From: a virus
Length of the DNA stretch: 64,000 nt
Reading direction: 5' to 3' (one strand)
IMG/VR virus record: IMGVR_UViG_3300023202_000205
Location: 64,001-128,000 of that record
Positions 38,931 through 61,772 of the stretch are shown in pieces. Under the pieces are notes generated by a model. It saw only the letters and a list, made by a program, of their open reading frames with translations. It searched no databases and had not been told where the DNA came from. The stretch's first letter is position 1, and each line of letters starts with the position of its first letter. Both the position numbers and the translations under genes were made by a program.

Positions 38931-38960
38931 GGTAAACCCCCTTTTTACAGGCTAGGAAAA

Positions 38961-38976
38961 GTGTTCGCGTGAACAC
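38961..38976. promoter_or_regulatory. Palindrome copy GTGTTCGCGTGAACAC
   Basis: Intergenic. Confidence 0.75.
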
Positions 38977-40660: not shown

Positions 40661-40981
40661 GTCACAGATACCAAACCTCTAAGCGGGCATAGCGAGGAGT
40701 ACCAGGGCCAGACGATCCACCTCGGCACCATAGTCAGTCACAGATACCAAGCCTCTGAGCGGGCATAGCGAGTGAGCGCGGGGTAGCTAACAGTCATTTA
40801 GGGGGCGTCACAGATACCAAGCCTCTGAGCGGGCATAGCGAGCACCCAACGGATCCCTCGTTCTCAGGCACAGTCACAGATACCAAGCCTCTGAGCGGGC
40901 ATAGCGAGCTCAGCACAGCGCTGGTCGGTGGGCGCCCGCTGGTCAGTCACAGATACCAAGCCTCTGAGCGGGCATAGCGAG
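40661..40981 (-). CRISPR. CRISPR mini-array, 5 repeats / 4 spacers, no cas genes in window
   Basis: 36-nt repeat GTCACAGATACCAAGCCTCTGAGCGGGCATAGCGAG at 40661 (2 mismatches), 40737, 40807, 40873 and 40946. Unique spacers of 40, 34, 30 and 37 nt. The degenerate repeat is on the left and a leader-like flank on the right, implying minus-strand transcription. Confidence 0.92.
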
Positions 40982-41052
40982 AGGGCCTTTATAACTAGGT
41001 TCATGGAACCGTGTTATATCGATATCCGCGAGAGCCCTCATCTCAGCTGATC
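40982..41052 (-). promoter_or_regulatory. Conserved CRISPR leader-like flank, copy 1
   Basis: About 70 nt, near-identical to 41757..41827; contains nested inverted repeats. Confidence 0.7.
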
Positions 41053-41173
41053 CTAGCACCCTTTAGATCACTGCAATATCTCCACCTAAACCACTATCAG
41101 CAAAGAACATCGAGCGCCTCCCAGGTTTTCCCGACCAGAAAGGCGCTCGAAACTTGCTGACAACCCTCACTCA

Positions 41174-41189
41174 GTGTTCACGCGAACAC
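41174..41189. promoter_or_regulatory. Palindrome copy GTGTTCACGCGAACAC
   Basis: Between the HTH gene and the CRISPR leader. Confidence 0.75.
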
Positions 41190-41258
41190 TTTCTGTTCGA
41201 GGAGGCTATGGACGATGGTGTGCGTGATGGCAGCGATCCGAGGATGGTTCGGGTTCTG

Positions 41259-41651
41259 CTAGAATAGTACAGATAATTTACCTATGAGGCGTCCGATCTC
41301 CTCCGCTGGCACACGCCAGAGGTGAGGTCCAAGCTTACGAGCTTCGATACGGCCGTCTCGAGCCATGCGACGAACAGTCTCCTCACAAAGGCCTAGAATC
41401 GTCGCCGTTTCTCTGATGGTATAGGCTGAGTCTGAAACGATACAGACATCCAGCTTCTGATGGGAAGGGAGCCACCGCCGATCACCAATGCGGACGATCA
41501 ACCCAAGCTTCTCCGGATTACCCCAGGCGGGTTCTGTGCCGCGCTCCCAGAGCGAATCCGTCATCGATTTGGCTGGATTTTGATAGACCGCCCTGACGAA
41601 CTCGGCTTCCAAGTCGCTCAGTAGGTCGTTTAGCAGAACTGCTCTGCTCAT
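41259..41651 (-). CDS. Excisionase-like HTH (HTH_17/MerR-type) DNA-binding protein
   Basis: C-terminal YTIRETATILGLCEETVRRMARDGRIEARKLGPHLWRVPAEEI; AAAGGAG Shine-Dalgarno sequence. Confidence 0.85.
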   Translation of the reverse strand: MSRAVLLNDLLSDLEAEFVRAVYQNPAKSMTDSLWERGTEPAWGNPEKLGLIVRIGDRRWLPSHQKLDVCIVSDSAYTIRETATILGLCEETVRRMARDGRIEARKLGPHLWRVPAEEIGRLIGKLSVLF

Positions 41652-41720
41652 AATGCACTCCTTTATTGGTTTGAGTTAATGGTTTACGTATGTCAGATAC
41701 GTCAGTGTCAGTCAGTGTCA

Positions 41721-41827
41721 ATCACAGATACCAAGCCTCTGAGCGGGCATAGCGAGAGGGCTCTTATAACTCGGCTCAGGGAACCGTGTTATATCGCTAT
41801 CCGCGAGAGCCCCCATTTCAGTCGACC
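41721..41827 (-). repeat. Solitary CRISPR repeat plus second leader copy
   Basis: Repeat at 41721..41756 (35/36 identical), followed by a flank homologous to 40982..41052. Confidence 0.9.
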
Positions 41828-42530
41828 CTAGCTTTATCCCCCTCGCCATGGGTTTCCCGCTCTCCTGCCAGATACAGCAGGTCTCGAACGGTGATGTGAA
41901 CAAACTCGCCGGGCCTGCCTTGTTCACGAGCCCAGTCGATAATCGACTGGATATGGTCAGGCCATTCCTGCTCTCCTTCAGTCTCCTCCGTCATAGTCTC
42001 GCTCTCTTTCGTGATAGGGCTCTGGATAAATGGCCAGGGTACATTTGACAATGGTGAACGGGGCTGACTTACCCGTTATACGCTCTTTGGCCAGCTCAAG
42101 CGCTTCTCCCTGTGTACGAGCGAACGTACCCCATCGGAACGCACCATGACTGGTAACAGCACAGTAACCGGGTACTGCCTGCTGCTTCACATATCCTTTC
42201 TTATACCGTGGTGGAATACTCATGCCTACACCTCCCGTACTTCTACTGGGAGAAACTAACCGGAAACTATCTGGTAGATTCCTCAACAATGTTTGGCCCC
42301 CAATGCGTCAAACCGCCTACCTTGGTAGATGCCTTCCACTTACCTCTGCTACGCTGCACCAACTTGTAGGCGCAGTCATCACAGATCAGTGCTTGAAGGT
42401 GGTCAGTATCGTTCCCACTTCCATACCCGAAGTGCATGGCGATTACACCTGCTTTAAAGAAACAACCGTCCTGGTGACAGGCGATGTGGTCTAGGCAGAG
42501 GACGCATTGTTCTTCTGTGGGTTGTCCCAT
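41818..42530 (-). other. Three small hypothetical ORFs (41818..42051, 41978..42289, 42267..42530)
   Basis: Tightly packed minus-strand ORFs; the last has two CxxC motifs. Confidence 0.5.
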
Positions 42531-42551
42531 GTGTGTATGTCCTATCGTGTG

Positions 42552-42950
42552 TTAGAATTGTTTCCCACCGTTCATGCGGGATCGGCTCTTGTTCATTCGA
42601 ATTTTAGCGAGAATGGCGTCGATCACGTTATGCCCACACCCCTCTGCGTGGTCGAGAATACGTATGATCGTATCAGCCAGCTCACTCTCAACAGACCGAA
42701 ACTCAGGTATCTTGTCATCGGGCGGATTCCCATGCCGAAGCCCTTCGAGAGCCTCCGACAGCTCGCTGTGATGGAGGGCAATCATCTCGCCCTCGTTTCG
42801 TTCTGCGTCCCAAAACCCCTTTTCCTTGGCAGTCTCGTGAATCTCCTCTTGAAGAGATCTTAGACCGAGCCGTATATGCTCATATCTGTAGGTATTCAGC
42901 ATGTCCTCCGTGAACCCCACTTCCTGTAGGTCGTCATCGAGTGGTCCCAT
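42552..42950 (-). CDS. MazG-like nucleotide pyrophosphohydrolase
   Basis: IALHHSELSEALEGLR...VESELADTIIRILD, the all-alpha NTP-PPase motif. Confidence 0.85.
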   Translation of the reverse strand: MGPLDDDLQEVGFTEDMLNTYRYEHIRLGLRSLQEEIHETAKEKGFWDAERNEGEMIALHHSELSEALEGLRHGNPPDDKIPEFRSVESELADTIIRILDHAEGCGHNVIDAILAKIRMNKSRSRMNGGKQF

Positions 42951-42959
42951 ACGTGTCTC

Positions 42960-43937
42960 CTAGTCCTCGTGATCAGCCTCCGCTGCCTTGGCAACGGTAA
43001 GCAGTTCGGTGATGAGTTCGAGCTTCTGCTTGTGGGCCTTCTTCAGGTAGGCGGGGGTACGGCGATCAGAGCGCTTGCGCAGGTCGGCGAGCATGTCAAA
43101 GGTGCCACTACCCATCGTTTGGGCCAACACACCTCCGATACCGTCTGCCTTACTGAGCAGATCAGCCGCGTAGGGCAACAATGTGAGAATCAGTGAGGTC
43201 ACGTCGTCTCGGAACATCTGCAGACGTCCTTCGATAGCATCTGCCAGCTCAGCATCTCCTTCTCCAGCTAAGGCTCGCGCAAGTAGCTCCTTGAGCTCAT
43301 CAGAGGTCTCCCACGCGAAAGCTTGGTACCTGCGCTGGCCTGTAACGACCCCTATCGAAGTAAGCCACCCCTGAAGGGTACGCGCCGTCTCAAGGGCGTG
43401 CACGACGGCAGGCTGCTTGCGTGCCTCGACCTGCGCACGATAGACAGCCATAGCCCGCTCCTTGTCCATCGCGCGTGCTACGGCGGCAAAGAAGTCACCA
43501 CTGATTGTATTATCAACTCCCCGCTTGGTTGCCTGCTTCTTAACAACCAACCGCCCCTTCTGGGCAAGCATCCAACCACAGCCCTCGGGAACCTCATCAG
43601 CTGCATTGACGACACCGGGCGCTGTGACGTACCAGAACATGTGACTATTGTCCATGAACCACGCGTTCTTATGGGGATTGTTGATTTCGCTCAAGAAATC
43701 ACTACGGCTGACCTTGACCTCAAAGGCCTCACGATGGATACCGTCACTTGGCCACATGCTGAATACCATAGCGTCGATCCACGTCGACTTGTGTGCAAAC
43801 CCTGTCGCCGGCGCTACCTGTTCGACGAAGACGTAGCGCTTCGAGTTGCCGTTGCCGGTCTTGTCGTAGCGCTCGCGCAGGAGGTCGATGACCTCCTCGG
43901 CCGTCCACTTATGCTTCTTGGCTTTGGCCATTTGCAC
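42960..43937 (-). CDS. MmcB-like PD-(D/E)xK nuclease-fold protein
   Basis: WIDAMVFSMWPS...AFEVKVSRSDFLSE...FWYVTAPGVV..DEVPEGCGWM. Confidence 0.8.
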   Translation of the reverse strand: MQMAKAKKHKWTAEEVIDLLRERYDKTGNGNSKRYVFVEQVAPATGFAHKSTWIDAMVFSMWPSDGIHREAFEVKVSRSDFLSEINNPHKNAWFMDNSHMFWYVTAPGVVNAADEVPEGCGWMLAQKGRLVVKKQATKRGVDNTISGDFFAAVARAMDKERAMAVYRAQVEARKQPAVVHALETARTLQGWLTSIGVVTGQRRYQAFAWETSDELKELLARALAGEGDAELADAIEGRLQMFRDDVTSLILTLLPYAADLLSKADGIGGVLAQTMGSGTFDMLADLRKRSDRRTPAYLKKAHKQKLELITELLTVAKAAEADHED

Positions 43938-44253
43938 CCTCTCTCTTGAGCTCGCCCAGGATCCGCTTGGCGATCGATGTTGGGTTGGCGTTCACGCCAT
44001 GCGTCCCAATCGCTGATTTCACGCCATTGGCAATAGCTGCCAAGCTGAATGGCCCTGTCAGACACCTGACGGCCGCCTTAGCTGCTTCTTTGGTCAACTG
44101 TCTCGGGCCCGAGAATCTACAGTTCGGGCACTCCAACTGCCAGGTAGCAGGGTTCACCGGGTGGTTCAGTATCAGGTCAAAGGTCAGCGGGAACCCGTGC
44201 GCGTTGAAGGCATGCGTGACCATATCAGCGTTGCAGTGCGGGCATTTCATCAC
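43909..44253 (-). CDS. Zn-ribbon protein
   Basis: MKCPHC...LECPNC. Confidence 0.6.
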   Translation of the reverse strand: MMKCPHCNADMVTHAFNAHGFPLTFDLILNHPVNPATWQLECPNCRFSGPRQLTKEAAKAAVRCLTGPFSLAAIANGVKSAIGTHGVNANPTSIAKRILGELKREGANGQSQEA

Positions 44254-47089: not shown

Positions 47090-47219
47090 GGCGCTCCTTC
47101 AACAACGACTGACGTCGTCTCCGACGCTCCCTCGCTAACTTGGTGTATAAATACCAAGTAGTGGGTGCTCGCTTTGTTACCTTGATCCTGTGAGCTTTCA
47201 TAGCCCCCTCGTAGTAAAA

Positions 47220-47253
47220 GTGTTCACGCGAACACAGTTGTCCGCGTGAACAG
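47220..47253. promoter_or_regulatory. Palindrome copy GTGTTCACGCGAACAC plus adjacent degenerate copy TTGTCCGCGTGAACAG
   Basis: Intergenic tandem site. Confidence 0.75.
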
Positions 47254-47418
47254 GTGTTGAGTTAAGAATGCCCTATGCCCGCCTGGTGAGACAGGAGATT
47301 GTGTCCACCTTGTCGTCACACAGGTAAGCCGCCTGATCGAAGAAAACCCAGAAACTCTTGCCATCTTTCGCCTCGACTATCAAACTTTGCACCCACTCCC
47401 CCTCGTCGGGTCGCGTCT

Positions 47419-47449
47419 GTCACAGATACCAAGCCTCTGAGCGGGCATA
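47419..47449 (-). repeat. Solitary truncated CRISPR repeat
   Basis: 31 nt identical to the first 31 nt of the array repeat. Confidence 0.85.
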
Positions 47450-48659
47450 TCAAGCGCACCACGCCGCTGATCTTGGTGGTTAGCTGGCCCCCGGCACCCC
47501 ATAGTTCTCATGGATCCACTGCAGCGCAGGCAGGCTCGTGTTACGGATCGCTTCGTGCAGCTCCTTCACGTAGTGAGTCTCGCCGTCGTGCATGTGGACG
47601 AACTTCGGGCAAGCCCACAGCTCGACGGTAAGGCCTTCGGCGTGATACGTTATCGCAGTGTAATGGTCGGCCTCACCTTGCTCACGGCGGTCTTCCGTCA
47701 AACGAATGAGCAGAACCGCCATATCGCCCAGTGAGAGGTCCTTGAGGATCTTGGCGGCCGTCTCTTTGGTCTTCATCACGTCTCCTGGTGTTCCGTGGCG
47801 CCGGGAGAAGACTGGCTACCACTGATGTCGGTGTGACCGCAGTCGTCCTCATCATCAGTTACCTGCATAATGATCGGCTCGCCGGTCGCCGGGCACGGGA
47901 CCCAGTGGGTCCATTCATCGGACCCGCCAGCTGGGCGGCTGAACTTCCGGAAGGTCAGGTCGGAATGCGTGCCGCCGCATCGCGCGCAGTCACGCACGGT
48001 AACAGGCCGCGGGAAGCGCTCAGCGTTATCGGAGCCGTGAGCTGCGGCCTCCAAGCGAGCAACAACGCAGTCGTCATCGTGCCCTTTGCCCGTGTGGTAA
48101 GCGGGTCCGCCGCATAGTGAGCAGTTGGCGTCCACCTGGTTAGTCAGCTTGACGATGGCATCACGTGCTTCACGTAGGAGTTCGGCAGTTGGTTGTGTCA
48201 TTGATCGATCCTTTGGTAGTTGCATAGGTTGATCACAGAACCCGATCACGCCGTGTTCTTCGGCGGCTTGCGTCTCACGCTTCACCTACTCCCCTTCCAA
48301 TATGGTCATCTCCCCGTCTCTCACCTGCTGCTGCAGCGCATCTCGCTCGAAGGTGAGGGCGCGGACGGTTTCGACCAGTTCCGGTGCAGCGGCAAGTAGG
48401 TCTGCGTCCGCACGGGATATCAGACCTCCTAGATACCCGTGACCGACAGGGCCGTAAACGTCCCAGGATTGCTCCTGTTCGTTCCACACGGCATGATACG
48501 GCCCCGGCGTGTACCCAGTGGGTAGATCTTCAGATGTCGGCATCGTTGGCCTCCTTTTGACGATGGGTTTGAGCGTCCTCTCTCCCGAGTTCGTAGTACC
48601 TGAGGTAACGCTTACCCCAGGTTCGGGCAACATGGCCCCGCCCGTCATAGCGGCCAAGA

Positions 48660-50362
48660 GCCTCGTCGATGTAACCGTGGCTGGCACAAAAGCTACCTAT
48701 TACTGGGTCGAGAGGTCGTTTACTCATAGAATACGAACCTTCTCACGGATTTTGCGTCGTGCATAGCTGCTTGGATCGTTTTTCTCCCACCCAAAGAGCC
48801 AGCACTCATCGTCAACGATCTTCCCGTCCTCGAAGATCAGATCCCCACTCATTTTGCGTGCCATTGCTGCCGCGCCCAAATTAGGGTAGTTCCCGAAATC
48901 ATAGTACTCGATAATCTCCCCGGTCCGACCCTCGCGTAGACCTAGAATGTGGTATCCAGTCAGTTTCATGGTACCTTTCCTTTCTTTACATAACCTAAAT
49001 CCAGTTGGTGGCTGCGTCACTATCTGAAATGTCTTCCCCAGTCGCCATTAAATGCGTGCTGCGATTGCATGCTTCACGCCACTCGCGCAGGACTCGCATG
49101 AAGGCATCAGCCAGATCAATGCTCTTGCCGTCATCGTCCTCGTCGTAGTTGTCATCGACAAGACCACGCTTCACAGCTTCCTTGAGTGCAGAAAAGATGT
49201 CCTGCTCGTTCTCGTTCACGAACTGAACAATGGCGTATTGCTTATTGTCCTGCTCTCGCACAAGATCCATCAGGCGCTTCTGCTTGGCTTCTGTATTCAC
49301 GTTGGGCATAAAATTAGTCATAGTTCATTCTCCTTCAGTGTTCGAATGGTTAAAACGAGGGTCTCTTATAGTTTTAGCGTTAGCGGGTTGGTGATTCTAA
49401 ATATTCCTGGAATGCCTGCTCCGGTGTTCTATCAACCAGGCACTTCTCTTTGAGCCAGAATGTGTATTCCATATTTTTTGAGCACCCGACGAACTTTTCA
49501 TAGGTGGCCTGGAGTCCAGGGCAGCCGCATATTGGACACACCGGAATGATTCCTGATCTCGATGTCTTGGTCCAGTCGTCCGTCCAGTACGCGCAACGCG
49601 CGGAATACCAGACCATCCGATTATTATCGCGGTCTGTAGTGGGTCGGCCTTCGGCGGTCTGGAATCGCGGCTCTTGCATCTTGTTATTCCTATTACGAGT
49701 GTCAGTCATTGCTTCTCCACTCCTCTCGAGCTTTAGCGCGAACTTCTTTACATTGGCACTCGTCGGTGCACCACCCGTCGATGTCAAACGAATGCTTACA
49801 GAAGTCGGGGTCGATCTCATCTCCGCTGGGTTCGTACCCCTCGCATCTCTTCATCTCTGCTTCAGGGTAGCACCGATTTTTCGGAGAACACGCTAGGTAC
49901 TTTCCGTTGAATTTACATAGATGCATTATTTCTCCTCAAAGGTTCAAAGGTTATGTTTCCTGATCGATAGTAAATCCGCGAATCGTCAACCCGCCGGTAA
50001 AGCAGATGTAAGACTCCCTGGAATTGCCGTGGCCACAGCAGGCATTGGTCACGCCGGGAAGGTGACCTAGGCACGGATCTGGCAAGCCGTCTGCGCTACT
50101 ACCGTGCTTACCGCACTGACCGCAGGGGCGATCGGCCCACGTCTCTACCGTGAGCTCGTCGTCGTCACAAAAACGCCATTCGCCATCGGCGTCCTGATAT
50201 ATGGGCCATCCTCGCAGAGTGTCAGTCATAGATCATTCCTCCATGAAGCCTTCCGGCGGTATTCTCGACTCATTATAGGTTCTTAGTTCTTCTGAAATTC
50301 CAAGTGCCTCGTCGATGTAACCGTGGCTGGCACAAAAGCTACCTATTACTGGGTCGAGAGGT
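48660..50362. repeat. 57-bp exact direct repeat (48660..48716 and 50306..50362)
   Basis: GCCTCGTCGATGTAACCGTGGCTGGCACAAAAGCTACCTATTACTGGGTCGAGAGGT occurs twice; encodes PLDPVIGSFCASHGYIDEA on the minus strand. Confidence 0.9.
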
Positions 50363-51919
50363 TTCTTACCCATTGTCGGGTAGTTCCCTAACGCTAACAC
50401 GGATGTGGTGTGTCTTACCACTTTTAAAGAGCACGTTGGGGTAAACCAGATACAGATCGTCTGGTTGGTCGCCAGGAAACCCCTTATCGTCATCTTCTGG
50501 CTCACGGCCAGTAAGCCGGTGGAACGTCTCTGCGTCGACGCCGAAGCAGAAGCACTGCATATCACCGCCTGCGTAGGCTATGAACTCGATGTAGGCTATG
50601 GACTCGATGACGGTCTCCCCAGGCACTTGATCACAGTAACCTATAGCATCTCCATCCAGTGTTACTATGTAGATCCTCCCCCAGTTGATGCGGGCATCTA
50701 CCACCTCCTTTTCCACATCAAGAACACCATCCCGCACTCGCCTAGCGAGAGCTGGAGCGTGCCGATAGATTACGTCGGCGATATGGCGACGTATTGCCTC
50801 ATATGTCGGGTCGATCTCTACTTCAGTAGCTAGACTCTCGACAAGCCCGCCGCGTATTTCTCTGAACTTCATGACTTCTCCTTGATCACAGGCATCACGA
50901 TGCGGTCGAAGACGATCTTGGTACGCAACGGACGAACGTTGCGGAAGGGTGGCAACCGAATCAGCAACCACTGCACCCACCTGGCTCGGCGCCAGAAGAA
51001 TCGCTCACGACGATTCATCTGATCCATCGGCACACCACGGACGTAACGGCTAGGGGCATCCGGGTCGCTGATCGGAATCACCACCGGCTTCCTGTTCGGA
51101 TCGAATAAACCCGCCGGTTTTCCATTCGGGAATCTGTTCGGGAAAACGCTCATGCGTCTATTTCATCACGACGACCTGATAATGGCCTCGGTCGCAATAC
51201 CCCGGTCGCTGCTTGATGAAGGCCAGCATCTCGTTCTCGTCATAGAGCTCGAGACAGACGGTATGCTCGCCGTCGTTGAGCTTCCATTTCCAGTTGTTTC
51301 CCATGTTATACTCCCTTTGGTTTACTCGTAACTGCAACAGCCTATAAGGCCATCTAGAAACTTGAGAATCTCAGTGACCTCTGGCTCCCTACTGTGTGTC
51401 GGTGCCCACTCCTCGAGCTTACGCTGCACCGCCCGACCACGCTCCTTTCCATGCATAGTAATGACGGCTGCCAACTGCACCAGTTGATGTGCCTCCGCGA
51501 TTATCTCGTCTTCATCTCTCATAAAACCCCCGCTCAGTAAGACTTACGTTGGCGACCCTAAATGATCGGATCGCTGAACTTGTTGAGCTGGTCCTTGTGC
51601 TCACGCACATACGTGAGGCACCGATTGAGGCGTGACACCCCGCGGTCATATCCGGCCGCGATTGCCTCGGCAAATCCCTCGCGGTGGTCGCCGCTCAAGA
51701 TGAGAAAGTACTCCATCTGCCCGAGCACGAGCGCGGTGGTCACGTCGCCGTAGATATACGTGTCGTGACTATTATAGGAGATATACCAGTGCTTGCTCCC
51801 GGTATCGACCTCGTCGGTCCGGTTGGGAACAGTGCACGGCATCCCTTCGATAACAGCCATATAAGCTGAGCTACGTTTCATGCTACCTTATCTTTCTTTT
51901 ATCCGTCTATTAGTGAATA

Positions 51920-51935
51920 GTGTTCACGCGAACAC
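51920..51935. promoter_or_regulatory. Palindrome copy GTGTTCACGCGAACAC
   Basis: Intergenic. Confidence 0.75.
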
Positions 51936-53977: not shown

Positions 53978-54424
53978 TCAGTCGATTACCCGCCTTTTGG
54001 TACGGAGGTCGACCTGATAGGTGATCAAGTAGATCCCTTCCTGGAACACGTGATCGTCATGCTCGGGATGTGCCAGCGTCCACTCACCTGTCGCCTCGAT
54101 CACCGGCCCCAGGCATTCCTGGCGCATAGCGGGATCATCACGAAAAAGATCGACTGGACACGCCTCCGCCGCCCGGGCAGCATCGTCGGGCCAGAAAATG
54201 CGAACGGGACCTTGCGCGTGATGCCGGGACCCGACGGTCTGGCCGAGAGCCACCTGCCTGGACTGCTCAGTATTTTCGACGTTCCACGCCGCCGGGCGTT
54301 TGGAGATGGGGTGACAGTAAACATCCCCCTGATGGCCCGCAGCATCCTTGTCATGCTTACGAACCTCCTGCTGGACCTTCGCGGCCTTGTCGTTCAGTTC
54401 CTTGATGTGTTCTTGGACGTTCAT
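53978..54424 (-). CDS. Small partner protein of the kind found next to DUF6745-type genes
   Basis: HQGDVY...LGQTVGSRH...HPEHDDHVFQEGIYLITYQ. Confidence 0.65.
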   Translation of the reverse strand: MNVQEHIKELNDKAAKVQQEVRKHDKDAAGHQGDVYCHPISKRPAAWNVENTEQSRQVALGQTVGSRHHAQGPVRIFWPDDAARAAEACPVDLFRDDPAMRQECLGPVIEATGEWTLAHPEHDDHVFQEGIYLITYQVDLRTKRRVID

Positions 54425-54440
54425 GTCTCTCCTCTAATTC

Positions 54441-57089
54441 CTAGCTCTGGTGAGCTATGGTGGTCTCGTCGAAACCACAGATGGATTCGTGAGCTTCGCG
54501 ACACGTTGTCGCGTTAGCGTCGACAGGCATGGCGTACACCCGGCCAGTCGAGTTATCTGAGCCATACAGATATTGGTCTGCGTGCATGTCCTGAACCAGG
54601 ATACGGGGAAGACCGTGGTACATGTCCGAGTCAACTAATTTAGTATCGGTATCCCCTAGATATCGCTCAATCCCGTATCGTTCGATCAATACACGACGCA
54701 CCTCTGCGTTTACTTCTCCCCCAATCTCTTCGAGGGTTATCAAGTGAGGTTCCATGATCACGTGTTCTTTCACCCGCACACCATGCCAGTGATATAACGA
54801 CCACCCGTCCCGCCACCTATGCGAAGGACCTTCCTCACAATGTGCGCGGTTTTGCCTGTCTGTAAAGACTACCTCGGGGTTTTCACTTACTACACAGAAC
54901 TTTTCATGAAAACACTGAAAACCACCCTCAGCCGCATCCTCGTAATGTCTCCACTTCTCATACTCCGGGAGATCCAACCAACCCATCTCCCGGAAAGCTG
55001 TGATGAAAGTAATCCAACCGCCCCACGTGCGGCCTCCCTGGTAAACACGGCCCCACTTAGTGGCACAGCCAACAGCATTCTTTATAGAAATGCCAGTCCT
55101 ACAACAGAACAAAGCAACGCCGCATAACACCTGCGAAAGAGTATCCTTTGACCACTTAACCTCTTTCGCCTTACTCATTTCAGCATACACAGCTTCGCGG
55201 GTGGCGTCGCCCACAGCTTCGTGGGTGGCGTCGGACACAGCTCTGAGGGTGGCTTCGTCCACAGCTCTGTGGGTGGCGTCGGACACAGCTCTGAGGGTGG
55301 CGTCGGACACAGCTCTGAGGGTGGCAGCATACACAGCTTCGCGGGTGGCGTCGTCCACAGCTTCGCGGGTGGCGTCGTGCACAGCTCTGTGGGTGGCGTT
55401 GTGCACAGCTCTGAGGGTAGCGTCGGACACAGCTCTGTGGGTGGCTTCGATCACAACATCGCCGGTGACGGCATACACAGCTTCGCGGGTGGCTTCGTCC
55501 ACAGCTCTGTGGGTGGCGGCATACACAGCTTCGCGGGTGGCTTCGTGCACAGCTCCGAGGGTGGCGTCACCCACAGCTTCGCGGGTGACGTCGTCCACAG
55601 CTCTGTAGGTGGCTAAGTCCACAGCTTCGCGGGTGGCAGCGAACACAGCTTCGCGGGTGGCGTCGTCCACAGCTTCGTAGGTGGCGGTGTCCACAGCTTC
55701 GTGGGTGGCGTCGTCCACAGCTTCGTGGGTGGCGTCGTCCACAGCTCTGAGGGTGGCGTCGTGCACAGCTTTGCGGGTGGCGTCGCTCACAGCTCTGAGG
55801 GTGGCGTCGTGCACAGCTTCGAGGGTGGCGTCGTCCACAGCTCTGTAGGTGGCTAAGTCCACAGCTCTGAGGGTGGCGTTGTGCACAGCTTCATGGGTGG
55901 CGTTGTGCACAGCTTCGCCGGTGGCGTCGTTCACAGCTCTGAGGGTGGCGATGTCCACAGCTTCGAGGGTGGCGTCGTGCACAGCTCTGTAGGTGGCGTT
56001 GTGCACAGCTATGCGGGTGGCGTCGTCCACAGCTTCTTGGGTGGCGTCGCCCACAGCTTCGTGGGTGGCTTCGTGCACAGCTTCGCGGGTGGCGTCGTGC
56101 ACAGCTCTGTGGGTGGCGTTGTGCACAGCTCTGAGGGTAGCGTCGGACACAGCTCTGTGGGTGGCGTCGTCCACAGCTCTGCGGGTAGCGTCGGACACAG
56201 CTCTGTGGGTGGCGAAGTGCACAGCTCTGAGGGTGGCGTCGTCCACAGCTCTGCGGATGGCGATGTGCACAGCTTCGCGGGTGGCGTCGCCCACAGCGTC
56301 GGACACAGCTTCGCGGGTGGCGTCGTCCACAGCTCTGTGGGTGGCAGCGAACACAGCTCTGAGGGTGGCAGCGAACACAGCTTCGCGGGTGGCGGTGTCC
56401 ACAGCTCCGAGGGTGGCGTCGTCCACAGCTTCGTAGGTGGCGTCGCCCACAGCTTCGTGGGTGGCGGCATACACAGCTTCGCGGGTGGCTTCGTCCACAG
56501 CTCTGTGGGTGGCGGCATACACAGCTTCGCGGGTGGCGTCGGACACAGCTCTGAGGGTGGCGTCGGACACAGCTCTGAGGGTGGCAGCGAACACAGCTTC
56601 GCGGGTGGTGGCGTCCACAGCTTCGTGGATGGCTTCGTGCACAGCTTCGTGGGTGGCGTCGTCCACAGCTCTGTAGGTGGCTAAGTCCACAGCTCTGAGG
56701 GTGGCGTTGTGCACAGCTTCATGGGTGGCGTTGTGCACAGCTTCGCCGGTGGCGTCGTTCACAGCTCTGAGGGTGGCGTCGTGCACAGCTTCGAGGGTGG
56801 TGTCGTGCACAGCATCGCGGGTGGAAGGCCTCGGCATAGACTTAGAGGACTCCTGCCCCTGACGATACCACCACAAGGCAGCCGTACCATAAACCAATGC
56901 CATCTGCAGGGGGCTATCAACAATCACTACTTTCGGTTCCGATAGTCCTGCAGATTCGTATAACCCTCGAATACCGCTGATAACGCGGTCCCGATCACAA
57001 CGCTCGGTAGAGCGCGTATGTTCGATCCACTTTTCTGTATGTTTCTTCAGGTTCTCGTAGTCCTGTTCCGTTAAGTCAAGGTGCAGCAT
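54441..57089 (-). CDS. DUF6745-like domain protein with large octapeptide repeat expansion
   Basis: Start at 57089 after an AAAGGAG Shine-Dalgarno sequence. C-terminal CVVSENP..DRQNRAHCEEGPSHRWRDGWSLYHWHGVRV..NAEVRRVLIERYG, recognised from memory as DUF6745-like. Confidence 0.8.
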   Translation of the reverse strand: MLHLDLTEQDYENLKKHTEKWIEHTRSTERCDRDRVISGIRGLYESAGLSEPKVVIVDSPLQMALVYGTAALWWYRQGQESSKSMPRPSTRDAVHDTTLEAVHDATLRAVNDATGEAVHNATHEAVHNATLRAVDLATYRAVDDATHEAVHEAIHEAVDATTREAVFAATLRAVSDATLRAVSDATREAVYAATHRAVDEATREAVYAATHEAVGDATYEAVDDATLGAVDTATREAVFAATLRAVFAATHRAVDDATREAVSDAVGDATREAVHIAIRRAVDDATLRAVHFATHRAVSDATRRAVDDATHRAVSDATLRAVHNATHRAVHDATREAVHEATHEAVGDATQEAVDDATRIAVHNATYRAVHDATLEAVDIATLRAVNDATGEAVHNATHEAVHNATLRAVDLATYRAVDDATLEAVHDATLRAVSDATRKAVHDATLRAVDDATHEAVDDATHEAVDTATYEAVDDATREAVFAATREAVDLATYRAVDDVTREAVGDATLGAVHEATREAVYAATHRAVDEATREAVYAVTGDVVIEATHRAVSDATLRAVHNATHRAVHDATREAVDDATREAVYAATLRAVSDATLRAVSDATHRAVDEATLRAVSDATHEAVGDATREAVYAEMSKAKEVKWSKDTLSQVLCGVALFCCRTGISIKNAVGCATKWGRVYQGGRTWGGWITFITAFREMGWLDLPEYEKWRHYEDAAEGGFQCFHEKFCVVSENPEVVFTDRQNRAHCEEGPSHRWRDGWSLYHWHGVRVKEHVIMEPHLITLEEIGGEVNAEVRRVLIERYGIERYLGDTDTKLVDSDMYHGLPRILVQDMHADQYLYGSDNSTGRVYAMPVDANATTCREAHESICGFDETTIAHQS
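55185..56822 (-). repeat. In-frame 24-nt tandem repeat, about 68 units, encoding AVxxATxx
   Basis: Plus-strand unit is approximately CACAGC(TCT/TTC)NNGGGTGGCNNNNNN; includes higher-order duplicated blocks. Confidence 0.95.
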
Positions 57090-57381
57090 TGTGCACTCCT
57101 TTCCTGTAGAGCAGGGAACGGCTCTTACCGTCCCTTGCAGTTTTCTAGAATAGCTGATAGTTTTCAAACAACCAGCATAGAAGGGTCACTAGAGAGTATC
57201 GTCATAAGTCGTGTGTCTGTAGGGGTTTACGTACCCCGCGATACCAGACCTTATCAGCCCTCCCAAAACAACCCCACTTTACCCATCTTTCTGACACATG
57301 TCGCCACAGACGACAAAACCCCATTATCCAAATAACACCCCTTTGATCACTTTTTGAGCGATAACAAAACGACTCTTTGAG

Positions 57382-57786
57382 TCAGGCTCTCTTACTCACT
57401 AGATCGATCAGGTGATCCACGCGAGCATCCTTTCCCCGCAAGCCCTGTAGGTACTCGCTGATCCTCTGAGCGTTCTTCAACTGGTGATTATGGGGTTCCG
57501 GCCTCCCCTCCTGGCCACAATTGAGAAACTCAGCACGAAAGAATGCCCACGACCGTTCCGTCAGCAGCCAGTGAAGCAATCCCGTGAAAGCCTGCTCTGT
57601 AGGCGACAGCGTCTCCTCAGTGGGGGCGGGCTCTGGTGCTTGGTAGTCCTGTGAGGCCTCCCTCCTAGCCTGTGAGGCCTCCCTACTAGCTTGCTCCTCG
57701 ACCCAGGACAGCTTGTTGGACAGCTCCCTTAGTGCCTCTCTGACCTCTCTGACTGAGTGAAGGTTCTTTTCCGGATCCTGAGACAT
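57382..57786 (-). CDS. Hypothetical protein
   Basis: Likely start MSQDPEK at 57786. Confidence 0.55.
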   Translation of the reverse strand: MSQDPEKNLHSVREVREALRELSNKLSWVEEQASREASQARREASQDYQAPEPAPTEETLSPTEQAFTGLLHWLLTERSWAFFRAEFLNCGQEGRPEPHNHQLKNAQRISEYLQGLRGKDARVDHLIDLVSKRA

Positions 57787-57797
57787 GAAGAGCCTCC

Positions 57798-58226
57798 TTA
57801 GTTGGGCAGCTTGGCGTAAGGGAACTGCTGCTTGATCTCCTCCACGGTGGAGACCGTTACCGGGCGTTGCCAGGGGATCTGGAACACTTTGGCGACACGA
57901 TGCAGTCCTGCTCCCCACGTCTCAGGGTCCATGCAGTCGTGCAAGCAGGTGAGTTGGTACAGCATCTTCAGGGTTCTGGGGTCGTGCATATTCACTCCCG
58001 ACTCCCTCAGGGCGCTCTGCAGGGCAGGACTGGCGAGATTACACGAATGCTGCACGTGACCCTCGAGGTACTGTTCGTCGAGGGCGAAGCCGATAGCATG
58101 CTTGTATCCCTCCTCGGAGACGAGAACTGAAGACGGCCCATAACTGGGTGAGTAGTAGATCGCTTTGGCATTCTGCCGCAGCAGGCCCTCAGCAATGCGG
58201 TAGAAGAGTTGTTTGAGTGTAAGCAT
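57798..58226 (-). CDS. Hypothetical protein, paralog of 58290..58691
   Basis: QLFYRIAEGLLRQ...AIGFALDEQY...LHD...W...VAK. Confidence 0.65.
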   Translation of the reverse strand: MLTLKQLFYRIAEGLLRQNAKAIYYSPSYGPSSVLVSEEGYKHAIGFALDEQYLEGHVQHSCNLASPALQSALRESGVNMHDPRTLKMLYQLTCLHDCMDPETWGAGLHRVAKVFQIPWQRPVTVSTVEEIKQQFPYAKLPN

Positions 58227-58289
58227 GATAATGCCTCCTTTGTGACTAATGGGTGAATAGACAATGACCTGGAACAACAACGTCGTTGC

Positions 58290-58691
58290 TCAGGCTGAGA
58301 CTGATTCTGGTGACCAGTCGATCTGGTAGGAGCGGGCGAGCAGCAGGAGCCGATCGGGCCACTCCCTGGGAGAAAAACGGTCGTGGATGATCTGCAGGGA
58401 GATCACCAACTCACGGGTCCGGCGATCTTCGAAATCAACGCCAGAAGCCACCAGAGCAGCCTTCAGAGGCTCTGACTCTGGGTTGGTGGGGTTGACTCGG
58501 GTAAGTGGGACCTCCTCGAAAGAGCTGTGGTAATGCTGGTCGTCGATCAGAAGACCGACGCTGACCGGCTTGCCACGCCTCGTACGGTACCGTCGGACCT
58601 GGCGGTGCGCGGTTCCCACTGGCACCACGCGACCCTCCTTGAGGAGATGATCGGCGACTTTCGTGAATATCTGAGTAGCAGATTTTGCCAT
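58290..58691 (-). CDS. Hypothetical phage protein, paralog of 57798..58226
   Basis: QIFTKVADHLLKEG...VGLLIDDQHY...LQIIHD...WPDRL. Confidence 0.7.
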   Translation of the reverse strand: MAKSATQIFTKVADHLLKEGRVVPVGTAHRQVRRYRTRRGKPVSVGLLIDDQHYHSSFEEVPLTRVNPTNPESEPLKAALVASGVDFEDRRTRELVISLQIIHDRFSPREWPDRLLLLARSYQIDWSPESVSA

Positions 58692-58726
58692 GTCTCGAAT
58701 TCCTTGAAGACAGAGTGATAGACGAA

Positions 58727-58750
58727 CACCCCACGCAAAAACGTGGGGTG
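58727..58750. terminator. Intergenic stem-loop, possible terminator
   Basis: CACCCCACG-CAAAAA-CGTGGGGTG. Confidence 0.5.
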
Positions 58751-58807
58751 CTGTTCCGAGGTGTTTGTGAAAACTCGGGTTAGGACTTTTTTGAGCTGTG
58801 AACTAGC

Positions 58808-59207
58808 TCAGCGCGATGGGCTTATCGTCCAGTAATAGACGACGGTGTGGGAGAAATGATAATCAGAGCCACACACCTCACACATGGGAAGGCAGTTCCA
58901 GCCATCCGCGAGAGTGTCTGAGGGGGTCATCTTTATGACGGGCTCCTCATTTGTACAAAGACAGCTGCTCTCAAAAACAAGTAGCACGTCCGTGTCATCG
59001 ACACGGGCTGGAAGACGTTCCATGGTCAGATCCTTTCCAGGCTCGTAAGTGGTCTCGGATGTACTCCCTAACAGCCCATTCACCACACTCCAAGGTGTCC
59101 GATGGAACCGTCAATGAGAGTACCCCATAACGTTTCCGCCATTTCTTGTTGATGCGCTTCTTCGGGTGGGATCGGACCTGAACGTCCACGCGATGGTCAG
59201 TTTCCAT
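58808..59207 (-). other. Two small ORFs (58808..59086 with CEVC; 58995..59207)
   Basis: Packed minus-strand ORFs. Confidence 0.45.
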
Positions 59208-59286
59208 AGTACCTCCTCGCAGTTGGTTAGTAACTTCGCGGAAAAAGGAGAAAAACCAAAAGAATAGCAGTGACGATCGTCATGAA

Positions 59287-59472
59287 TATGTCAAATCCAG
59301 TGACGCCCGCGTAGCCCGCAGATTGGCTCTGTATGATCACAATCAAAAACCAAACCGCTAAAAGCAGCCCAGCTAGGATTATGTCAAATCCAGTGACGCC
59401 CGCGTAGCCCGCAGATTGGCTCTGTATGATCACAATCAAAAACCAAACCGCTAAAAGCAGCCCAGCTAGGAT
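59287..59472. repeat. Exact 93-bp tandem duplication (2 copies)
   Basis: 59287..59379 equals 59380..59472; encodes a 31-aa TM-containing unit on the minus strand (ORF 59227..59439). Confidence 0.9.
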
Positions 59473-60143
59473 GGGGTGCCGAGATTTGATGGCTCACCCT
59501 CCTGTTCAGCCTGGCCTTCCTCGTTTTTACGAACGAGTGCCTTGTGGATCGTCGACGTCTCCTCCCGCCACTGCTGGATCTTGCCCAGGACATAACTCAA
59601 TTGAGTAGTACCGCTCCGAGAGTAATGCTCCGCACCCGCCTCATTCCAAGGCATGGGCCAGAGACAAGCCCCACCACCACGGGCCCGGAACTGCTGGACG
59701 TGACGCATACTATCGTCGATCAGAAACGTCAGAGGGCCCGCCGCAGCTGCCTTCCTCGGCGTGATCATGAAATCTCGGAAAAACCGATTACAGAAAAAAT
59801 CCTGCAACCACTGGACCTTTCCACCCGCAGCCGAAGGGTCCACGCTGGGAGACGTGCAAATCACTACCCGACAAGAGGTTGTGTCATGTAAGGTGTTGAA
59901 CAGCATTCTCGCCCACGGGAGAGGCTCCAGGTTGCTCCAAAAAGCGGCTCCCTGGGCATGAAGCGTATCCCACATATCGCTTTGCGTTTCCCAACCGAAA
60001 TGCTTTTCGACACCCCAGTCAGGTGGTGGGTTGTGAAAGTGGTCCGAATCCCGGTTCTGGGATGCGTAGCCCGCGACGGCTTTGACGAAATTGGTCAAAA
60101 CACCATCCATGTCCAAAAGGATCACTCGCTCACCCTTGTTCAT
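59466..60143 (-). CDS. HAD-family 5'(3')-deoxyribonucleotidase (NT5C-like)
   Basis: ILLDMDGVLTNF, LEPLPWA, ICTSP, GKVQWL, FLIDD. Confidence 0.88.
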   Translation of the reverse strand: MNKGERVILLDMDGVLTNFVKAVAGYASQNRDSDHFHNPPPDWGVEKHFGWETQSDMWDTLHAQGAAFWSNLEPLPWARMLFNTLHDTTSCRVVICTSPSVDPSAAGGKVQWLQDFFCNRFFRDFMITPRKAAAAGPLTFLIDDSMRHVQQFRARGGGACLWPMPWNEAGAEHYSRSGTTQLSYVLGKIQQWREETSTIHKALVRKNEEGQAEQEGEPSNLGTPS

Positions 60144-60949
60144 TCGTCACCCTTCCCAAAAGTGGCTTTGCTCAGATACTCGGCCAGAAACGGGTTTTCC
60201 ATCCGAGACACCTGGCCCCTCGCGTGAACTCGCAGATCCCGCTCCCGCATCGGCGTAATACGACCCCTGAGGACCTCGCAGCGCAAAAACAGCAAATACG
60301 TATCCAGAGCGTCGCACATGGCGTAATTGAAGATCTGCTGTTGTTTTCCATCCTGCCACATCTGAAAAACCTGAGACCCGTCAATACCCATGCTCTTACC
60401 TGCTCCTCCGGCAAAGTAAGCAAACATGTCCAACCCACCCGGAATTCGTTGACCGCCAAAATTCGAGATGAATTCCTGACAGTCGAAATGGGCGTCGGTA
60501 TTGAACCGATATCGGGGATGCTTGTAATTAGGCCCCTCCTGGGAAAACCAGTGCCGGGCTTCCTCAATACCGTAACGAAACGCATAGGTCTCCAAAACCG
60601 GCATATCGAAACCCCGACCGTTGTAGGTCACCAACGTTGGGCCACCATATTTCTCCCAGCCCCGCCAGAATTTGCGGGCAACCCCCTCAGGGCCACCCTC
60701 CAAATCGTGAACCGCCAAAACCTGCCTTAAACTCAGGTCAGGCCCAGCCTTGCAGAGGCCAATCGCAACAGGGCTGTGCCACGGAATCGGCAGAAACGTC
60801 GATTCCCCCAATTCCCGCTGCTCCTCCTGCCACGTAGTATAGAGATCCTCACCCCGCATAGTGCTACCGGGGTATTTGAAATCCCGCAGCAACTGGATAT
60901 CCGGAATGGTCTCAATGTCGAAAACGAAAATGTCAACGCCGTCCTTCAT
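60140..60949 (-). CDS. Stand-alone PolB-related 3'-5' exonuclease (DnaQ-like)
   Basis: ExoI FDIETIPD, ExoII LVTYNGRGFDMPVL, ExoIII IFNYAMCDALDTY; start at 60949 after GGAG. Confidence 0.88.
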   Translation of the reverse strand: MKDGVDIFVFDIETIPDIQLLRDFKYPGSTMRGEDLYTTWQEEQRELGESTFLPIPWHSPVAIGLCKAGPDLSLRQVLAVHDLEGGPEGVARKFWRGWEKYGGPTLVTYNGRGFDMPVLETYAFRYGIEEARHWFSQEGPNYKHPRYRFNTDAHFDCQEFISNFGGQRIPGGLDMFAYFAGGAGKSMGIDGSQVFQMWQDGKQQQIFNYAMCDALDTYLLFLRCEVLRGRITPMRERDLRVHARGQVSRMENPFLAEYLSKATFGKGDE

Positions 60950-60967
60950 AGGGACTCCTCTCAAATT

Positions 60968-60983
60968 GTGTTCGCGCGAACAC
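60968..60983. promoter_or_regulatory. Palindrome copy GTGTTCGCGCGAACAC
   Basis: Intergenic, about 19 nt upstream of the exonuclease start. Confidence 0.75.
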
Positions 60984-61113
60984 AGATCAGACTGTGCCCA
61001 AACCACCTCTGAAAAACTGATTCAGTCGAACCACAAGCAGATTGGCCTGGTTGATGAGTTTCATCGGAAGACTCCTACCGGTTTCCGGTTCAGATATCGA
61101 ATGTGCCTCGGGT

Positions 61114-61488
61114 TCAGTTCAACTCAGCCTGCTCCTTCCGAGCCTCACTGGTCAACTGCCTCAGGCGATTTTCGAACCGCCTCTTGGCTTCCTGGTCGAT
61201 CATCTCAACCAACTCCGTCTCCTGCATCTCCTCCTGACTGCAAACGAAAGCAGGCCCCACCAGCAAGCTGCCTACATGGCCAGAGAGAATAGCGGCGTAA
61301 GAGTTCAGGTCGAGATTCAGCAGTAGCCCCTCGTCGTCTACGTAGATGTCCCACCCACAGGCGGTGCCTTCAAGAATCGGAACTGCGCAGAAAAGCCCTG
61401 AAGGGAAAATCTGGTGTGTGTTGTTGAGTAGACGGTGGTGTTCCACGTGGAACATCACCTCTCCATTCGGCTCTATGATGAGTGCCAT
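61114..61488 (-). CDS. DUF3846-like protein
   Basis: DIYVDDEGLLLNLDLNSYAAILSG...LVGPAFV. Confidence 0.7.
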   Translation of the reverse strand: MALIIEPNGEVMFHVEHHRLLNNTHQIFPSGLFCAVPILEGTACGWDIYVDDEGLLLNLDLNSYAAILSGHVGSLLVGPAFVCSQEEMQETELVEMIDQEAKRRFENRLRQLTSEARKEQAELN

Positions 61489-61528
61489 GATGCTCTCTTT
61501 CTCAGCGAATAGGAGGCGCAGTCACGCT

Positions 61529-61666
61529 TTACGCGTCCTGCTCTCCTTCTTTTTCCTCTTGCTCTACAATCAGACGGTCCAACGCCTCGTTGAAACTCAT
61601 CCCCTCGGTCCGCAACTGGTCGAGCCGCTTGGCCAACTCCCTATCGGCCCCTACCCTGCGCCACAT
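61529..61666 (-). CDS. Small ribbon-helix-helix / antitoxin-like DNA-binding protein
   Basis: MWRRVGADRELAKRLDQLRTEGMSFNEALDRLIVEQ; this is the C-terminal part of track ORF 61529..62002. Confidence 0.5.
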   Translation of the reverse strand: MWRRVGADRELAKRLDQLRTEGMSFNEALDRLIVEQEEKEGEQDA

Positions 61667-61736
61667 ACCAATCCGCTCCGACCCGCTCCTGGCCCTCGGA
61701 GGTGGATCACCAAGGTCGTAACATATCTGGTAACCT

Positions 61737-61772
61737 GTCACAGATACCAAGCCGCTGAACGGGCATAGCGAG
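61737..61772 (-). repeat. Solitary CRISPR repeat
   Basis: GTCACAGATACCAAGCCGCTGAACGGGCATAGCGAG, 34/36 identical to the array repeat. Confidence 0.9.

Follow-up and report, generated by a model that had tools for sequence, protein, structure and literature searches.

Among the natural Cas12 families, Cas12m alone is limited to binding DNA, and tools for CRISPR interference, base editing and genetic circuits are being developed from it. Cas12m proteins with D-E-D, H-D-D or N-D-D triads bind DNA in dependence on a protospacer-adjacent motif (PAM) without cleaving it, and the known PAMs are T- or C-rich. Processing of the CRISPR RNA precursor (pre-crRNA) is Cas12m- and Mg-dependent and RuvC-independent, and the crRNA is a single RNA of 50–60 nt without a trans-activating crRNA (tracrRNA) (PMC11013384). 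The Cas12m of the myxophage MV-1 has been reported as the first in a phage (bioRxiv 10.64898/2026.09.14.751636). Solitary repeats are adjacent to cas12a in ~34% of type V-A loci (PMC10120712), and autorepression of type V-A by CreR is described in a preprint (bioRxiv 2023.03.10.532045). Here we describe a 36-nt CRISPR repeat, arrayed and solitary, in a 64,000-nt stretch of the virus record IMGVR_UViG_3300023202_000205. This stretch, called the window below, comprises bases 64001–128000 of a 179,364-bp record with a completeness estimate of 96%, and genome coordinates are window coordinates plus 64000. A sequence-only reading had considered the repeats Cas-less, whereas they almost certainly belong to a type V-M CRISPR-Cas12m system encoded by the phage. 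Profile and domain searches of the window itself agree with the earlier view, but the phage has a cas12m gene at genome 166465–168345. The Cas-less appearance is an effect of the window edge, because cas12m, two larger arrays and three more solitary copies lie outside.

The repeat family, its arrays and the phage Cas12m

The repeat (GTCACAG...AGCGAG on the plus strand) has eight copies in the window when up to three mismatches are allowed, all on the plus strand. They start at 40661, 40737, 40807, 40873, 40946, 41721, 47419 and 61737 and carry at most two mismatches each, against a chance expectation of 0.00 (100 shuffles). The array of five units and the solitary copies at 41721, 47419 and 61737, all in one orientation, had been recognised by the sequence-only reading and are borne out. 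Across the whole record there are 33 copies in a single orientation, 27 of them in three arrays that together hold 24 spacers and six of them solitary (genome starts 36523, 105721, 111419, 125737, 129413 and 168435; the second to fourth are window 41721, 47419 and 61737). No reverse-strand copy (anti-repeat) was found at ≤8 mismatches anywhere in the genome, although weaker anti-repeats could remain; this agrees with the lack of a tracrRNA in type V-M. The repeat region has no Rfam match at E ≤ 1. The database search that had been suggested for the repeat gave no exact match to the repeat core in 185,579 species-representative genomes or in the metagenome and viral collections.

The arrays, the effector gene and the elements between them are the following, with window coordinates unless the genome is named.

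40661..40981, minus strand: CRISPR array W, 5 repeats and 4 spacers (40, 34, 30 and 37 nt), with a degenerate terminal repeat at 40661
40982..41111, minus strand: array leader of ~130 nt, conserved at all three arrays, ending in GTTATAAAGGCCCT that abuts the first repeat
41100..41150, minus strand: terminator-like hairpin with T-rich tail, closing the transcript of a helix-turn-helix (HTH) gene just before the array leader
Genome 165054-165637, outside the window, minus strand: array A, 9 repeats
Genome 165813-166454 (L009:5813-6454), minus strand: partner open reading frame (ORF) of 213 aa between cas12m and array A
Genome 166465-168345, outside the window, minus strand: cas12m (product P0001, 626 aa), just upstream of array A and ~38.5 kb beyond the window end
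Genome 171934-172828, outside the window, minus strand: array B, 13 repeats

Assignment to type V-M is carried by the effector and by the layout around it. The family profile of P0001 matches the solved structures of Cas12m (23vw_A) at E 1.2e-147 over profile positions 7–550 and of Cas12m2 (8hio) at 3.6e-73, which amounts to full-length homology to Cas12m. Relatives of P0001 number 2,745 in the full-library search, and the Cas12f1-like TNB domain (PF07282) is present among them; P0001 itself has no Pfam or NCBIfam match. Arrays A and B, built of the identical repeat, flank cas12m, and array A starts 176 nt (leader plus terminator) past the 213-aa ORF that lies downstream of the gene. This arrangement, with an array of ~36-nt repeats beside the effector on the same strand, is that of type V-M and is shared with the related loci L012, L013, L015, L017 and L018. 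The Cas12m profile search detects one intact copy in the genome and none in the window, where the nine largest ORFs contain no cas domains, and searches of the phage genome with Cas1 and Cas2 models were negative. The scan of the remaining genome that the sequence-only reading had called for therefore yields a single effector gene and further repeat copies; of the complete cas operon elsewhere on the genome that it had named as counter-evidence, the effector gene alone is present. Its proposal that the array hijacks host Cas proteins is not upheld, since the genome encodes its own Cas12m flanked by arrays of the identical repeat and nothing points to a hijack. The Cas6 that was thought to cleave the repeats is the wrong enzyme, because the type V-M effector processes pre-crRNA itself (PMC11013384).

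Every array has its degenerate repeat at the low-coordinate end and the shared leader at the high-coordinate end, and the genes of the genome are nearly all on the minus strand; the arrays are thus read on the minus strand, and the crRNA is therefore 5'-repeat-spacer-3', the arrangement of type V. The hairpin and T-rich tail before the leader of array W recur before that of array A, and related phage-type Cas12m arrays have a -10-like motif directly before the first repeat. Three of the "spacers" are just 19–20 nt long (genome 165237-165256, 165365-165384 and 171970-171988), and the other 21 measure 30–40 nt. Partial repeat fragments (GGTATCTGCGA, GTATCTGTTGAC) are seen after the end of array B and after the solitary repeat of cas12m, and (TGAC)n runs after the end of array A and after the solitary repeat at 41721.

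Alignment of the family RuvC motifs (VAVDxGWR, VxEDxDW and WDQDxNA) with the corresponding segments of P0001 (VAVMPGW, VVIPDI and SGDYS) revealed that the RuvC-I Asp is replaced by Met and the RuvC-II Glu by Pro, giving a triad of M302-P453-D529 in place of D-E-D. D-E-D is found in 110 of 162 aligned members; M-P-D occurs only in P0001 and in P0002 and P0016, which are closest to it, and P0003 has T-P-x. The M-P-D clade appears to go one step further within a family whose members already function by binding. The published properties of Cas12m (PMC11013384), taken together with these residues, lead us to infer that P0001 would bind DNA without cleavage and process its own pre-crRNA.

Directly after cas12m, an ORF of ~200 aa is found in all three M-P-D-clade loci (the others at L012:2818-3411 and L013:11818-12390), with 21 invariant positions. 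The AlphaFold model of the 213-aa partner is helical, with a predicted local distance difference test score (pLDDT) of 75. Nothing significant was found for it in Pfam, NCBIfam or Foldseek, where ParB-like rows appear only at E ~0.7; the product may be an accessory protein. Two genes upstream of cas12m, a 407-aa gene (genome 168914-170137, L009:8914-10137, minus strand) carries the precomputed Pfam label PF26125 (AcrVA2-like); its best solved-structure match is AcrVA2 (PDB 7ci1), at the C-terminus and at E 0.13 only. Elsewhere, beside a capsid-like gene, a 137-aa ORF (genome 44369-44782, L014:1369-1782, minus strand) has at its end a zinc-ribbon and RuvC-III motif of the TnpB type (CDCGHTEDRDVNAAQNL) and is either what remains of a TnpB C-terminus or a small domain fusion.

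Solitary repeats upstream of phage genes

All six solitary repeats are sense-oriented and lie 14–89 nt upstream of start codons. They are listed here with the elements next to them.

41757..41836, minus strand: leader copy of 80 nt, ~90% identical, directly upstream of the solitary repeat at 41721
41721..41756, minus strand: solitary repeat with 1 mismatch, separated from the HTH_17 ATG by 69 nt
41259..41651, minus strand: HTH_17 (excisionase/MerR-like) gene, 130 aa, downstream of repeat 41721, with the ribosome-binding site AAGGAG
47419..47454, minus strand: solitary repeat, full 36-mer with 2 mismatches near one end
47273..47392, minus strand: putative 39-aa ORF (coding status uncertain) downstream of repeat 47419, with the ribosome-binding site GGGGGAG
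61737..61772, minus strand: solitary repeat ending 70 nt short of the 45-aa ORF's ATG, its 2 mismatches confined to the loop region of the repeat RNA
61529..61666, minus strand: 45-aa ORF, weakly ribbon-helix-helix (RHH)/VapB-like, scored as coding by codon usage and followed by a DUF3846 gene
Genome 36523, outside the window, minus strand: solitary repeat, 14 nt to a 274-aa ORFan, with the ribosome-binding site GGGAG in the first 10 nt after the repeat
Genome 129413, outside the window, minus strand: solitary repeat with a ~25-nt leader copy, 37 nt to a 289-aa ORFan
Genome 168435, outside the window, minus strand: solitary repeat, 89 nt before the cas12m ATG

The spacings of ~70 nt given earlier for the copies at 41721 and 61737 hold, and the gene behind the former was correctly named: the 130-aa product matches HTH_17 at E 2.8e-10, together with excisionase/regulator PHROGs. 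For the 45-aa ORF the naming as RHH-like stands in part, as matches to DUF7557 and to the RHH-type model VapB_antitox are present but fall below the cut-offs. The copy at 47419, which had been given as 31 nt, is complete; it lies 25 nt past the stop of a 99-aa ORF (47480-47779) and 26 nt before the GTG of the 39-aa ORF. The protein atlas returned nothing for the 274-aa and 289-aa genes.

The genome is 90% coding, and only 8% of its 36-nt windows are ORF-free. Four of the six solitary copies lie outside any ORF of ≥80 aa, and the plus-strand ORFs over the other two score as non-coding by codon usage. An alternative 157-aa frame runs through repeat 61737, and its upstream part is ambiguous by codon usage. 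The six copies have 15 substitutions, all within positions 1–6, 14, 16, 19, 33 and 36; positions 6–13 and 20–32 (21 core positions) are untouched in every copy, a pattern noted post hoc. Three further public assemblies of this phage show no difference (100% identity) in the solitary repeat of cas12m or in the 5' untranslated region (5'UTR) in which it stands; the samples behind SRR23862437, JGI 3300023214 and ERR1363500 contain the phage. This copy is thus no assembly artefact, and the identity carries no evolutionary signal.

Genome-wide, the leader motif is confined to the three arrays and two of the solitary copies (80 nt at genome 105721, ~25 nt at 129413). Because of this restriction, the HTH_17 gene and the 289-aa ORFan appear to be driven by a CRISPR leader, transcription entering the repeat first. 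Terminator-like hairpins lie 0–9 nt ahead of the solitary copies at genome 36523 and 168435. Scans for sigma-70 promoters around the solitary repeats found none, which says little because the phage has its own sigma factor. A promoter inside the repeat, as in type II-C, was considered and rejected: a type V crRNA has to begin with the repeat, and the hexamer resembling a -10 element is a poor one.

Alignment of the repeat with its counterparts from five further loci of phage-type Cas12m (L012, L013, Rctr197k, L017 and L018; six lineages only) points to a conserved RNA fold. In the transcribed orientation the repeat is predicted to form a stem and a pairing between the loop and the 3' end, with 87% of cells paired overall. 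The 3-bp stem (positions 9–11 with 20–22) is paired in 100% of cells, with compensatory changes at each pair (GCC/GGC, AGA/TCT, GCG/CGC and TCC/GGA across the lineages), and the pairing of the stem loop with the repeat 3' end in 81%. None of 500 shuffles reached the observed values, and slid controls were 22–51% paired. These compensatory changes back the predicted fold; six lineages are few, and the evidence is supportive, not conclusive.

Possible functions of the solitary repeats

These features are consistent with the solitary repeats being functional cis elements recognised by Cas12m, bound or processed as tags on phage mRNAs. We favour this explanation tentatively, giving it a little under an even chance. 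Once transcribed, the solitary repeats would form the 5' part of phage mRNAs, with a fold like that of the crRNA handle, and the phage's own Cas12m would recognise them there and probably cut; such recognition is proposed because the family binds and processes repeat RNA without RuvC. Binding or cleavage at the repeat would set the 5' end of the downstream message, its stability or the access to its ribosome-binding site, and the downstream genes would thereby respond to how much free Cas12m is present. At cas12m itself this would mean negative feedback on the effector, and at the copies 14 and 26 nt from a start codon the 'guide' stretch held by Cas12m would cover the ribosome-binding site. 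The earlier suggestion that repeats in 5'UTRs couple gene expression to CRISPR status may survive in altered form: the six sense copies before start codons fit it, but the sensed protein would be the Cas12m of the phage, not a protein of the host. Solitary repeats at cas12a and CreR autorepression in type V-A provide a precedent for the copy at cas12m; the five copies before other phage genes are without precedent in the literature as far as it was searched.

In parallel, crRNAs from the arrays would direct the presumably cleavage-dead Cas12m to DNA as a roadblock, and the target of one spacer lies in an operon of the phage itself, shortly past the sigma-factor gene. This spacer, the second from the leader in array B (genome 172683-172718), matches genome 19251-19286 on the minus strand (L016:4251-4286) at 36/36 positions. 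This self-protospacer is nt 64–99 of a 218-aa ORF whose start overlaps the end of the sigma-factor gene (283 aa, Sigma70_r3/r4, phrog_351), and its crRNA would anneal to the template strand. Within the phage genome, matches of the remaining 23 spacers, and of nine sequences that follow solitary or terminal repeats, are at chance level only. Four leader-proximal spacers searched as exact 26-mers had no match (three in IMG/VR, one of them also in the species-representative genomes, and the fourth in the metagenome collection), and there were no spacer matches in the five related loci. That a cleavage-dead Cas12m has been turned into a two-level regulator of phage genes, acting through DNA roadblocks and six mRNA 5' leader tags, with cas12m feedback and two small DNA-binding regulators included, is possible but doubtful.

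Several observations weigh against these regulatory roles. In two of the solitary copies, one outer pair of the helix predicted between loop and 3' end is lost, and for neither of the two copies that follow terminator-like hairpins can a promoter be named. The downstream genes, namely two small DNA-binding proteins, cas12m and three ORFans, have no clear common theme. Beside the target, the self-protospacer has a 5' flank (GAGTTGGC) with no obvious richness in T or C, and the self-match may be inert because this flank is unlike the known Cas12m PAMs. The viral, metagenome and genome collections contain no second lineage with the exact repeat core, and no dispersed solitary repeats occur at the five other phage-type Cas12m loci, the whole 197-kb Rctr197k record included.

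The absence of dispersed solitary repeats from every other Cas12m locus examined is also what would be expected if the copies were neutral relics without a function of their own, left by leader-repeat duplication, array erosion or recombination between the three arrays. Leader sequence is retained at two of them (80 nt and ~25 nt), and the partial repeat fragments after the end of array B and after the cas12m solitary repeat fit such an origin; the four copies without homology to array flanks, however, still keep 34/36 positions or a perfect 30-nt core. Substitutions shared between copies (position 3 C>T twice and 33 T>C twice) are consistent with copying between solitary repeats, but the 15 substitutions leave 21 core positions untouched (a count chosen post hoc), and all six copies are sense-oriented and just upstream of start codons in a genome with so few ORF-free 36-nt windows. 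Shmakov et al. described a solitary repeat as the remnant of a lost V-A locus, yet one copy here is situated exactly 5' of cas12m, a position known for V-A solitary repeats (PMC10120712). We regard a purely neutral origin as unlikely. It is quite unlikely, in turn, that the copies are trans-acting units of the crlRNA/CreR/Cracr type, in which a repeat and the following ~20 nt would make a one-guide crRNA with which Cas12m represses a promoter in the host or the phage. A type V crRNA is a repeat followed by a spacer, so that one repeat suffices, and Cas12m is a natural non-cutting repressor (PMC11013384). Regulatory crRNA-like RNAs from solitary repeats are known for types I-C and V-A, phage-borne ones included (bioRxiv 2024.12.27.630466; bioRxiv 2024.10.29.618823). 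The system does hold one perfect self-targeting spacer, and three solitary copies leave 69–89 nt before the start codon, room enough for a guide; in the other three the would-be guide overlaps the ribosome-binding site or start codon, which would put a double demand on the sequence there. The 36-nt stretches that follow the solitary repeats have no above-chance match in the phage genome, finding only their own loci at E ≤ 1e-3, and seed searches (16 nt, ≤3 mismatches) downstream of the repeats gave scattered matches without a common flank in the same genome. Targeting of their own loci by solitary-repeat RNAs was also considered and rejected, the flank there being the repeat 3' end that must protect the arrays.

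The sequence-only reading had in addition raised RNA anti-CRISPRs (Racrs), solitary repeats acting as decoys that soak up a host type V effector. Phage solitary repeats do act as Racrs and cluster with acr genes, and one Racr-acr co-transcript has been reported, but the viral solitary repeats are described as not associated with cas genes (PMC10651486), whereas here the cognate effector and 27 arrayed repeats are on the same genome. Decoys would then titrate the phage's own Cas12m. The core searches reported above leave the repeat without a known host system bearing it. The decoy proposal is thereby weakened, and we consider it very unlikely, although the precomputed AcrVA2-like label of the gene two upstream of cas12m, with its structure match at E 0.13, speaks in its favour.

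Recognition of the solitary repeats in mRNA by the phage's Cas12m, if true, would make it testable whether control through binding of an effector to repeat-tagged mRNAs exists in nature and, with the DNA roadblocks, whether viruses use CRISPR effectors as their own transcription factors. It would be a natural version of UTR-repeat designs or dCas circuits, and would offer a compact, already cleavage-dead effector with a conserved partner gene. To our knowledge, no natural phage counterpart of the UTR-repeat designs has been described. Should the solitary repeats prove to be no more than scars, what remains is a new V-M variant in a phage, which is useful as the literature lists a single phage Cas12m, against the several found here.

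Relatives, other features and comparison with known systems

A 10-kb megablast against GenBank phages returned nothing, and a Cas12m-based locus search in IMG/VR returned no relative. Phage or phage-like elements that carry a Cas12m and an array include Rctr197k, a ~90-kb contig with a T4-type portal, a 95-kb contig and the contigs of P0002 and P0016. The Cas12m homologue of Rctr197k (GenBank KX853510, L015) is annotated as 'similar to transposase', and the same record has a second array beside another transposase-like gene. At L013, a unit made up of a repeat, a spacer and a truncated repeat leads straight into the ribosome-binding site of the following gene. Because several such elements carry homologues and arrays, phage-borne V-M systems are commoner than a single 2026 preprint suggests.

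Other features of the window include a 908-aa protein (ORF 54441-57167, minus strand) with more than 60 tandem 24-nt units, encoding 8-aa repeats, at 55091-56800 and a DUF6745 match at its C-terminus (E 1e-20). The palindrome GTGTTC(A/G)CG(C/T)GAACAC recurs at gene junctions, sometimes with a T-run (38953-38976, 41173-41190, 47212-47235, 51912-51935, 60960-60983 and L009:8863-8880), and may serve transcription by the phage's own system as a terminator or an operator. At 59284-59469, a 93-nt unit is present in tandem duplicate with 99% identity, apparently intergenic. A 74-nt stretch occurs at 48654-48727 and 50300-50373 (93% identity); it spans two gene starts and therefore points to paralogous genes.

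Among described systems, MV-1 resembles the present phage in having a Cas12m beside an array without cas1, cas2 or cas4, and no protospacers were found there. The MV-1 effector differs in that it has 610 aa and keeps D305-E463-D555; MV-1 has one array, and solitary repeats or a self-targeting spacer are not reported for it. Its claim to be the first phage Cas12m is already doubtful given Rctr197k and the phage-like metagenome contigs. Racrs (PMC10651486) share with the copies described here an intergenic position in phage genomes, some behind promoter-like sequence and one near an Acr-like-labelled gene. They mimic host repeats on elements without cas genes, whereas this genome carries cas12m and three arrays of the identical repeat on the same element. 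In DREDGE (bioRxiv 10.1101/2025.03.17.643761), a repeat in an mRNA UTR makes expression depend on the cognate Cas protein, as proposed here, but the design is engineered.

The solitary units of type V-A and CreR (PMC10120712; bioRxiv 10.1101/2023.03.10.532045) likewise consist of a lone repeat-like unit just 5' of the gene of a tracrRNA-less type V effector, which they are proposed to bind or regulate, and the copy at genome 168435 is such a unit adjacent to a cas gene, 89 nt before the cas12m ATG. V-A units are near the detection threshold, whereas the solitary repeats here are near-identical to the array repeat. They are sense-oriented inside a presumed 5'UTR, and no partial promoter match of the adjacent sequence was found; a search within the phage genome for PAM-flanked promoter pairing by repeat-adjacent sequence found none. 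Five further copies stand before genes unrelated to CRISPR. Type V-M (MmCas12m, GoCas12m and Cas12m2; 8hio, 8hhl and 23vw) shows full-length homology to the effector, a size of ~600 aa, an array downstream on the same strand, a single crRNA, the lack of an anti-repeat and of adaptation genes, and a 36-nt repeat with a stem and pseudoknot-like pairing; the sequence of P0001 suggests that the non-cutting mode of DNA binding is to be expected here as well. The present system differs in being carried by a 179-kb phage, in the loss of the RuvC-I Asp and RuvC-II Glu, with M-P-D outside the characterised triads, and in a Lys-rich C-terminal tail, three arrays and six dispersed solitary repeats. We therefore describe it as a variant of type V-M that also belongs with regulatory solitary repeats and virus-encoded CRISPR, the regulatory function being a tentative reading of repeat placement and fold.

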